Shown here: one piece after another, positions 13,912 through 14,523 of the stretch
Layout: each line of letters opens with the position of its first letter
Numbering within the stretch: position 1 is the stretch's first letter
DNA from: an uncultured bacterium
GTDB lineage: Bacteria; Lernaellota; Lernaellaia; Lernaellales; Lernaellaceae
NCBI GenBank assembly: GCA_964534375.1
Contig: CAZHPN010000135.1
Span: 1-17,311 of the forward strand
DNA length: 17,311 bases
Direction: 5' to 3'
Made by a program: the position numbers and the translations under genes
The notes under the pieces: model-generated
What the model was told of the DNA's origin: nothing
The model's database searches: none
What the model saw: the letters and a program-made list of their open reading frames with translations, nothing else

Positions 13912-14028
13912 TCAGCGCCGCGGCGACCGGCGGCGGCTCCCCTCGGCGACGTCGCCGGTCCGCCGGATCACGATCAGACTGATGACGAGCACGGATATCA
14001 TGCCGAAATTTACGGCTAACTCCACCAT
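13912..14028 (-). CDS. Small membrane peptide, copy A (38 aa)
   Basis: MVELAVNFGMISVLVISLIVIRRTGDVAEGSRRRSPRR*, with RBS AGGAG 8 nt upstream. Paralogous to 14274-14354; not in the ORF track. Confidence 0.7.
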   Translation of the reverse strand: MVELAVNFGMISVLVISLIVIRRTGDVAEGSRRRSPRR

Positions 14029-14066
14029 CGATCTCACTCCTGTCTTTGGGCGCAGACCTTTCTTAT

Positions 14067-14081
14067 TCAAGTATCGCGCCA
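14067..14081 (-). promoter_or_regulatory. Sigma54 (-24/-12) promoter, variant -12 box, for peptide A
   Basis: Minus strand TGGCGC-GATAC-TTGA (GG-N10-GA), at the same relative position as the canonical copy at 14396-14410. Confidence 0.6.
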
Positions 14082-14176
14082 AGTGCGAAGATTGACGAAA
14101 ATCAAATCAATACAGTTATTTACGCAACAACCTCGCTTTCGCCGTTGCCGTTCCGATCGGTAGAAACGAAACGGCG

Positions 14177-14191
14177 CATTACATTTCGTAA
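14177..14191. promoter_or_regulatory. Candidate upstream activator site A (TTAC-N5-GTAA)
   Basis: CATTACATTTCGTAA is 13/15 identical to 14509-14523 and lies ~100 bp upstream of the -24 box. Confidence 0.55.
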
Positions 14192-14273
14192 GCTTCATTG
14201 CGGTGAAGCGCTACGCTTGTTATCCTGGCCTCGTCCACACGTCTGAAAACACCTGTAATATCAGCTTTTTTCG

Positions 14274-14354
14274 TTACCTCGGGCGTCGGCCAACGATGGC
14301 TAGTGCGATGACGAGCACCCAAACCACGCCGAAATTCAGCACAAGCTCGCCCAC
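14274..14354 (-). CDS. Small membrane peptide, copy B (26 aa)
   Basis: GTG start, MGELVLNFGVVWVLVIALAIVGRRPR*, with RBS AAGGAGG 9 nt upstream. Paralogous to 13912-14028; not in the ORF track. Confidence 0.7.
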   Translation of the reverse strand: MGELVLNFGVVWVLVIALAIVGRRPR

Positions 14355-14395
14355 TGCGATGGTCCTCCTTTTGCAACGTTCCATTGTGAAGGATC

Positions 14396-14410
14396 GCAAG
14401 CGGTGTGCCA
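14396..14410 (-). promoter_or_regulatory. Sigma54 (-24/-12) promoter for peptide B
   Basis: Minus strand TGGCAC-ACCGC-TTGC, an exact match to the TGGCAC-N5-TTGC consensus. Confidence 0.8.
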
Positions 14411-14419
14411 CAGTCTGGT

Positions 14420-14452
14420 TGATTCATTTTATTATTATTTTACAATGTGTTA
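14420..14452. promoter_or_regulatory. AT-rich, IHF-like site between the activator site and the sigma54 promoter
   Basis: An A/T tract followed by TTACAA-TGTG-TTA, resembling WATCAA-N4-TTR. The counterpart AATCAA-TACAG-TTA is at 14105-14118. Confidence 0.4.
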
Positions 14453-14508
14453 TGAGTGAATACTTAACAATTTACATCAATCGACAAAGCGGAGTGTTTG
14501 AACGCGAT

Positions 14509-14523
14509 CATTACCATTCGTAA
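14509..14523. promoter_or_regulatory. Candidate upstream activator site B (TTAC-N5-GTAA)
   Basis: CATTACCATTCGTAA, ~100 bp upstream of the -24 box. Confidence 0.55.

Follow-up and report, generated by a model that had tools for sequence, protein, structure and literature searches.

Tandem micro-genes beside queC: a probable family of sigma-54-controlled membrane peptides in Lernaellota

What is encoded by two very small open reading frames (ORFs) repeated in tandem between a kinase operon and queC, and how are they switched on? The pair, p1 and p2, lies on the minus strand of contig CAZHPN010000135.1 (assembly GCA_964534375.1) from an uncultured bacterium of the phylum Lernaellota; the contig was analysed over its whole length of 17,311 nucleotides (nt), referred to here as the window. 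The original prediction, made from the letters of the sequence, described paralogous membrane peptides, each in a cassette with its own sigma-54 promoter. The explanation favoured here, and judged probable, is that the two genes belong to a family of single-pass membrane micro-proteins, so far undescribed and confined to the Lernaellota, that are co-induced and act by helix packing. That they are real, expressed, sigma-54-controlled micro-protein genes is very likely, and the mechanism itself, modulation of another membrane protein by binding, is put forward tentatively. No part of bacterial genomes is less charted than proteins of fewer than 50 residues, and the Lernaellota are almost uncharacterised.

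Two peptide genes and their relatives

The two cassettes comprise the following elements (aa, amino acids):

14354-14274, minus strand: p1 ORF, GTG start, stop codon at 14274-14276, 26 aa
14370-14364, minus strand: p1 Shine-Dalgarno site, AAGGAGG
14410-14396, minus strand: -24/-12 box 1 (p1), TGGCACaccgcTTGC, predicted transcription start at about 14384
14415-14470, minus strand: AT-rich tract between palindrome 1 and box 1
14523-14511, minus strand: enhancer-like palindrome 1 (p1), TTACGAATGGTAA, centre about 133 nt upstream of the predicted p1 start site
14028-13912, minus strand: p2 ORF, ATG start, stop codon at 13912-13914, 38 aa
14041-14037, minus strand: p2 Shine-Dalgarno site, AGGAG
14081-14067, minus strand: -24/-12 box 2 (p2), TGGCGCgatacTTGA, predicted transcription start at about 14055
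14191-14179, minus strand: enhancer-like palindrome 2 (p2), TTACGAAATGTAA

The ORFs, Shine-Dalgarno sites, boxes, AT-rich tracts and palindromes of the original prediction are all present in the sequence, and the DNA blocks said to be shared at a 326-nt offset were correctly placed: AATTTCGGC and GTGCTCGTCATC, the reverse complements of the blocks as first given, are found in both ORFs, whose starts lie 326 nt apart. One correction concerns the start codons: p2 begins with ATG, p1 with GTG. The p1 peptide consists of an N-terminal stub of two residues, a single transmembrane helix and the basic C-terminus RRPR, and p2 is a p1-like core with an Arg-rich tail of 15 residues. Judged by their sequences, p1 and p2 are paralogous single-helix membrane peptides.

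A profile built from the seven paralogs found first, and then from 21 members, was compared with 17 genomes, a set identical for the class and the phylum and made up of the bacterium's own genome and 16 others. Matches occur in 16 of the 17 genomes at E <= 1 and in 14 at E <= 0.01, with low-complexity junk among the weak ones (G014, G007 and G009:C26). Inspection by eye for a small ORF, a Shine-Dalgarno site and the motif confirmed the family in 12 of the 16 others (G001-G006, G009-G011, G013, G015 and G016), or in 13 of the 17 with the own genome counted, which is the outcome of the profile search across related genomes that had been proposed. The own genome carries at least nine paralogs (two on C135, two on C31, and one each on C84, C19, C1, C122 and C10; three of the nine lie at C31:33125, C19:8466 and C10:7938). 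The local tandem pair is therefore real, but it is a member of a genome-wide and phylum-wide set rather than a local peculiarity. Two of the paralogs are long (C1, 92 aa, and C122, 127 aa) and share the C-terminal sequence RRPPQ(V/L)RV; because they are 53% identical along their entire length, they are taken to be real proteins. A word-indexed homology search with the 92-aa paralog returned only itself, and in the ESM Atlas all scores for the 127-aa paralog fell below the lead threshold of 0.9, with no family nameable.

Two other routes to the family failed. A DNA-level search in 40 relatives gave chance fragments only and was unproductive because the own genome is alone in its genus. A strict DNA motif for M-x-E-h-x-x-N-F-G, applied to the 17 genomes, retrieved only unrelated proteins, such as HExxH proteases; it missed the family because the F-G requirement was too strict, and the later profile search succeeded.

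Tandem peptide genes are also present in G001 (four genes), G004, G013 and G015. In the window, queC (13215-13898, plus strand; Pfam QueC, E 3e-69) is convergent with p2, and 14 nt separate the end of p2 from the queC stop. In G001 and G004 the tandem genes converge on queC in just the same way, which places the peptides beside queC in three genera and makes this arrangement older than these genera.

In the alignment of 21 members, every sequence has Asn7, conservation of Leu14 and Leu18 reaches at least 90%, most members have Glu at position 3, and position 9 is Gly, Ser or Ala; at least two basic residues follow the helix, frequently with a terminal W-R/N/H. The family consensus, a core of about 26 aa, begins M-x-E-h-h-h-N-x-G/S/A and continues with a hydrophobic helix and R/K-R/K. 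With each residue taken as a turn of 100 degrees, arithmetic places Glu3, Asn7, Leu14 and Leu18 within 60 degrees of each other, and these residues are predicted to form one face over the length of the helix. The N-terminus of two to three residues is acidic and three to four basic residues lie past the helix, a charge pattern for which the positive-inside rule predicts an N-out/C-in topology. A structure prediction for a four-copy complex of p2 returned 'no answer' (score 0.07 against a mark of 0.42) and weighs neither way.

Selection on the encoded peptides is seen in two ortholog pairs. The ORFs of G005 and G002 differ at three sites, all synonymous, and those of G011 and G010 at five, all synonymous and all at third positions, and the 300 nt upstream of the latter pair are 73% identical. 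With eight synonymous and no non-synonymous differences, the comparison indicates that the peptide ORFs are under protein-level purifying selection. The reading frames are thus kept with synonymous changes only in these two pairs, and the core is kept in all 21 aligned members, and the description of the two ORFs as paralogous membrane peptides is borne out.

The statement that no known family could be assigned also stands. Profile searches of Pfam, NCBIfam, PHROGs and the PDB gave nothing significant for the peptide family, Rfam has no match in 13700-14700, and none of the 21 members matches any family of small regulators of the MgrB, SafA, PmrR, MgtS, KdpF or AcrZ type in Pfam or NCBIfam. 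The GlyGly-CTERM sorting domain (TIGR03501) was rejected: two of the 21 members match it, at best with E 0.036 and under the NCBIfam cut-off, and the peptides are free-standing, without an exported domain. Some 1.3 kb upstream of the C10 paralog (C10:7938) are genes for a rhomboid protease and a DUF1761 protein, and a kinase-like ORF comes after it; a link to intramembrane proteolysis, drawn from this rhomboid neighbour and the weak GlyGly-CTERM matches, is only a thought.

When 1.84 billion representative proteins were searched exhaustively with HMMER, 18 matched at E <= 0.001; of these, 17 are family-like (11 previously in the set and six new: P0011, P0012 and P0014-P0017) and the eighteenth, P0018, is a repeat protein. 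All ten matches that were looked up are unnamed or labelled 'hypothetical protein'. The claim that both ORFs were unannotated needs amending for p2, whose exact sequence is present in public protein collections, though without a name; p1 is absent from the HMMER matches. A stringent pattern of the whole cassette, run against the genomes of 185,579 species, matched twice, in a G003 contig and in a Kiritimatiellia metagenome-assembled genome, and the latter match falls within an unrelated gene and was set aside as chance. Neither the protein search nor the cassette pattern found family members outside the Lernaellota lineage, although peptides this short are easily missed. Literature searches found no published description of the peptide family and nothing relevant on sigma-54 and small membrane proteins; in the part of the Lernaellota paper PMC9324843 that these searches included, 'sigma', 'RpoN' and 'small protein' occur 0 times, and its supplements may include genes of this kind labelled hypothetical.

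Enhancer, promoter and transcripts

Sigma-54 promoters have GG at -24 and GC at -12 at a fixed spacing (TGGCAC-N5-TTGC), and box 1 (TGGCACaccgcTTGC) is a complete match to this consensus. The palindrome starts 110-113 nt upstream of the box in both window cassettes, and the pattern palindrome-N84-102-TGGC-N7-TTG has two matches in the window and none in 200 shuffles. The own genome contains 22 TTAC-N5-GTAA palindromes, 13 of which sit 99-113 nt upstream of a TGGC-N7-TTG box, in a single orientation throughout; the combined pattern has 13 matches there, compared with none for a reversed control pattern. Six of these promoters (on C1, C31, C84 and C122, plus the window's own two) have a p1/p2 paralog as the first ORF with a Shine-Dalgarno site behind them. 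Boxes nearly identical to box 2 (TGGC-N3-GAT-N-CTTGAA, sixth base variable) precede the paralogs on C31, C1 and C122. When six cassettes are aligned, conservation is confined to the palindrome, a T-x-C motif that follows it after 7-8 nt and is mostly TTTC, the box, the ribosome site and the motif codons.

The same arrangement recurs in the relatives. Among the 17 relatives' genes listed, a TGG[CT]-N7-TTG box of the gene's own stands 49-85 nt before the start in 11, a palindrome with at most one mismatch lies 99-111 nt further up in ten of these 11, and two genes of G001 lie directly behind a gene that has a box. The layout of enhancer, AT-rich tract and -24/-12 box is thus conserved in paralogs and relatives alike, with diverged spacers, as had been proposed from the two window copies.

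Genes other than peptide genes also stand behind the enhancer and box in the own genome. They encode a lipoprotein on C24 (lipobox recognised by eye), an FGE-sulfatase/Lcl_C protein on C269 (Pfam; its N-terminus looks by eye like a lipoprotein signal), a DnaJ and TPR protein on C68 (Pfam, E 2e-10), a DUF4388 (PATAN) and TPR protein on C105 (a weak assignment, E 7.5e-5, under the Pfam cut-off) and a protein on C107 with a pilin-like N-terminus (by eye). In the relative G009, a poly-Asp lipoprotein gene on C64 follows the same enhancer and sigma-54 box. Upstream of the C269 FGE-sulfatase/Lcl_C gene, a 63-codon ORF lies behind the enhancer and box; it opens with a family-like M-W-E-S-A-V-N-A-G, then diverges, and from its sequence may be a degenerate or decayed copy. 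On the minus strand of G001 (C32:92000-95500), the same enhancer and box precede a 35-aa hydrophobic peptide without the Asn, followed by a 314-aa ORF whose N-terminus resembles a membrane-bound O-acyltransferase by eye.

The own genome encodes RpoN (one Sigma54_DBD match, E 2e-62) and has 21 Sigma54_activat matches and four genes of the HU/IHF family. The AT-rich tract between palindrome and box is possibly an IHF or HU bending site. A search for the palindrome around the 21 activator genes, out to 4 kb from each, found nothing convincing.

Five metatranscriptome runs from five studies contain part of 13700-14700, the interval for which the runs were selected, and the contigs of four were compared. 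Each contig matches the window at 100%, and all are unstranded:

13587-14364: contig X1, covering p1 and p2
13803-14030 and 14037-14362: contigs X2, covering p1 and p2
14027-14331: contig X3, covering p1
13731-13992: contig X4, covering p2

The contig ends at 14364 and 14362, from two studies, lie 20-22 nt downstream of the predicted p1 start at 14384 and give a weak hint in support of it. No RNA contig of the four runs covers 14365-14700, which holds the enhancer and the 3' end of the kinase gene, even though this stretch made up a third of the query. Elsewhere in 12900-15400, stretches without RNA contigs are no evidence of silence. The RNA contigs span p1 through the second promoter towards p2, in agreement with the absence of a terminator between the two genes. 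X1, an unstranded assembly, extends over 13587-13898 into the 3' half of the convergent queC; the overlap could be read-through antisense to queC or merged queC mRNA.

A number of observations weigh against a family of expressed, sigma-54-driven membrane peptides. The family is unconfirmed in G007 (84% complete), G008, G012 and G014, and four of the 17 relatives' genes (in G005 and G002, and at G013:C18 and G015:C2:601583) are without a canonical box. In the window, the -12 element of box 2 (TGGCGCgatacTTGA) is TTGA, not TTGC, with GA for GC, and weak sigma-70-like hexamers inside the AT-rich tract offer a rival promoter. Activator genes are missing from every cassette contig of the own genome and from the roughly 6 kb around the peptides at the ten relatives' loci scanned. 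The RNA contigs are assembled and unstranded, so that they give neither the strand nor true 5' ends, and DNA carry-over is possible. Translation is predicted from sequence, the topology and the shared helix face follow from sequence rules, and no partner protein, activator or inducing signal was identified.

Proposed action and rival explanations

Under the favoured explanation, each peptide gene would be transcribed from its own sigma-54 promoter and depend on RpoN. An enhancer-binding activator at TTAC-N5-GTAA, about 130 nt upstream of the start, would be required for transcription; it would contact the closed sigma-54 complex by DNA looping and open it, and the AT-rich tract between enhancer and promoter probably permits the DNA to bend. 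The same predicted activator site stands before at least 13 promoters, those of paralogs, exported lipoproteins and J-domain, PATAN and TPR scaffold proteins, and because of this the peptides are probably co-induced in one regulon, in which all cassettes bearing the site would fire together and otherwise be silent. Since lipoproteins and scaffold proteins share the enhancer, the regulon may be read as an envelope or membrane response. The peptides would insert with the two-residue N-terminus outside and the basic tail in the cytoplasm. Asn can drive the association of membrane helices, and as the conserved helix face contains Asn, the stripe of Glu3, Asn7, Leu14 and Leu18 would act as an Asn-containing, leucine-zipper-like surface that packs against another helix inside the membrane. 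The helix on the other side might come from the tandem paralog, or from a larger membrane protein that the peptides would tune in its activity.

A close regulatory parallel is PspG of the enterobacterial Psp regulon, likewise a small inner-membrane protein. Its gene combines a sigma-54 promoter of its own with an upstream activator site and an IHF site, and under membrane stress a single activator induces it together with other genes. PspG has about 80 aa and two helices, whereas the peptides have 26-40 aa, one helix and no sequence relation to it, and they are further set apart by occurring in up to nine copies, often in tandem. The own genome has two PspA/IM30 matches, neither on a cassette-bearing contig. 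The Qrr genes of Vibrio are similar in being very small paralogous genes, each with its own sigma-54 promoter and a common activator site, so that one regulator fires all copies; their products are RNAs, whereas the cassette products are under protein-level selection. Small bacterial membrane proteins and sigma-54 promoters with enhancers are kinds of element already known. What is new is the family itself and the way it is organised: many paralogs, often paired, each with an individual enhancer and sigma-54 box, conserved across a candidate phylum.

A rather unlikely alternative is that the peptides are type I-toxin-like or pore-forming, oligomerising through the Asn/Leu stripe to depolarise the inner membrane, with the sigma-54 promoter holding them off until the activator fires, so that they would act as a switch into dormancy or lysis. 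The ldr, ibs and zor loci encode small hydrophobic peptides in multiple copies, and the toxins Ldr, Ibs, ZorO and TisB are, like the peptides, short and hydrophobic with charged ends, in tandem units with their own promoters. The size of the peptides, their single helix, their charged C-termini and their several tandem copies per genome fit this pattern, as do the lack of a conserved protein partner in the neighbourhood and the tightness of the promoter, sigma-54 promoters having very low basal activity. The peptides differ from type I toxins in their sigma-54-type promoters, their phylum-wide distribution and their invariant polar residues, on which purifying selection is strong, and their queC-side position, kept in three genera, fits a physiological role better than an addiction module. 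Neither an antisense RNA family nor any other RNA match was found in 13700-14700, with the limit that unstranded RNA data cannot reveal an antitoxin. Transcripts in the environmental RNA of four studies also argue that expression is not rare.

It is clearly improbable that the peptides regulate a sensor kinase as MgrB, SafA or PmrR do, by binding to the membrane-spanning part of the neighbouring CpxA-like kinase, or of other kinases, and exerting feedback on signalling. The start of p1 lies 228 nt past the stop (14582-14584) of a HAMP-HisKA kinase gene, itself preceded by genes for an OmpR-type regulator (15940-16656) and an LTXXQ/CpxP-like protein (16724-17176) further upstream of the cassettes; a PAS kinase gene comes next after the C122 paralog, on its strand, and the kinase-like ORF mentioned above follows the C10 paralog. 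These make up three of nine own-genome paralogs, and the adjacency is found at none of the relatives' loci scanned: neither a kinase nor a P-type ATPase lies within about 6 kb of the queC-side tandem peptides of G001 and G004. Among the 16 relatives there is no clear or usable ortholog of the window kinase; its best match is 34% identical. The kinase is also not obviously in control of the cassettes, because the adjoining regulator is OmpR-type and not a sigma-54 activator. More broadly, MgrB, SafA, PmrR, MgtS, KdpF and AcrZ are single-helix proteins of fewer than 50 aa that bind a larger membrane protein, but the peptides have no sequence relation to them, are multi-copy and lack a conserved kinase or transporter neighbour. 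The link to the adjacent kinase or the nearby P-type ATPase, suggested by analogy with MgrB, MgtS and KdpF, is not supported, as these neighbours are not conserved in relatives.

Sarcolipin and phospholamban resemble the peptides in consisting of one helix of about 30 aa that carries a conserved Asn near its beginning and ends, at the C-terminus, in basic or aromatic residues. They differ in having the opposite predicted orientation, no match in the PDB search and no conserved ATPase neighbour, and the resemblance is at most convergent. On a further, very unlikely reading, the tandem peptides would be bacterial counterparts of the eukaryotic 'regulins', paired Asn-zipper micro-proteins docking in the membrane on an ion pump or another transporter and tuning it; they would be made on demand from sigma-54 promoters as a convergent, inverted-orientation analogue of sarcolipin and phospholamban, with each paralog serving another target.

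The narrower proposal, that the peptides are sarcolipin- or phospholamban-like regulins tuning the P-type ATPase about 2 kb away in the window (9541-12093, minus strand, with Cation_ATPase_N and Cation_ATPase_C domains), is highly improbable. It draws on a weak match of p1 to Pfam Sarcolipin (PF05366; E 0.067, 13.3 bits) in which residues 3-16 align with profile positions 7-20. The alignment takes in residues 3-8, where the family is conserved most strongly (E-L-x-x-N-F in both peptides, E-L-x-L-N-F in p1 itself). Membership of PF05366 was rejected: only one of the 21 members matches, far below the gathering cut-off of 26.4 bits, and a PDB search with the family profile gave no sarcolipin or phospholamban chain at E <= 10. 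Sarcolipin has a cytoplasmic N-terminus and a C-terminus across the membrane, and the basic C-terminus of the peptides predicts, by sequence rule, the reverse orientation. The peptides and the ATPase are separated by three genes, queC on the plus strand and two small minus-strand ORFs, and no P-type ATPase lies next to a peptide gene at any of the ten relatives' loci scanned.

That the ORFs are untranslated, being either small regulatory RNAs from sigma-54 promoters or chance ORFs, is scarcely credible, for although Qrr1-5 are multiple paralogous small RNA genes driven by sigma-54 and translation here is a prediction, the substitutions are exclusively synonymous, the amino-acid motif is kept across 12 genomes despite DNA divergence, a Shine-Dalgarno site stands at the right distance in nearly all members and Rfam gives no match.

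Returning to co-induced membrane micro-proteins, comparative evidence defines both the family and a cis-regulatory code. In this code the spacing between one enhancer site and a sigma-54 box is fixed, and at least 13 promoters are marked by it as a regulon. The enhancer site offers a handle for finding the activator and its signal, and the invariant Asn on the leucine stripe supplies precise residues for tests of helix packing in the membrane. If it is true that the peptides tune transporters, kinases or membrane potential, they would add a new case of micro-proteins exerting control on demand.

Other features of the window

On the minus strand, the LTXXQ/CpxP-like protein, the OmpR-type regulator and the HAMP-HisKA kinase are encoded in a row over 14582-17176, a Cpx-like envelope-stress layout. 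Further from the cassettes, a minus-strand ORF at 12742-12966 is small and has, by eye, a lipobox-like LVAC and an Asp/Glu-rich tail. Heptamer repeats, TTGTTCA (6.9 copies) and inverted CAGTGAA (5.3 copies), occupy 12244-12291 and 12630-12668 and flank a hydrophobic ORF of 111 aa on the minus strand (12293-12628).

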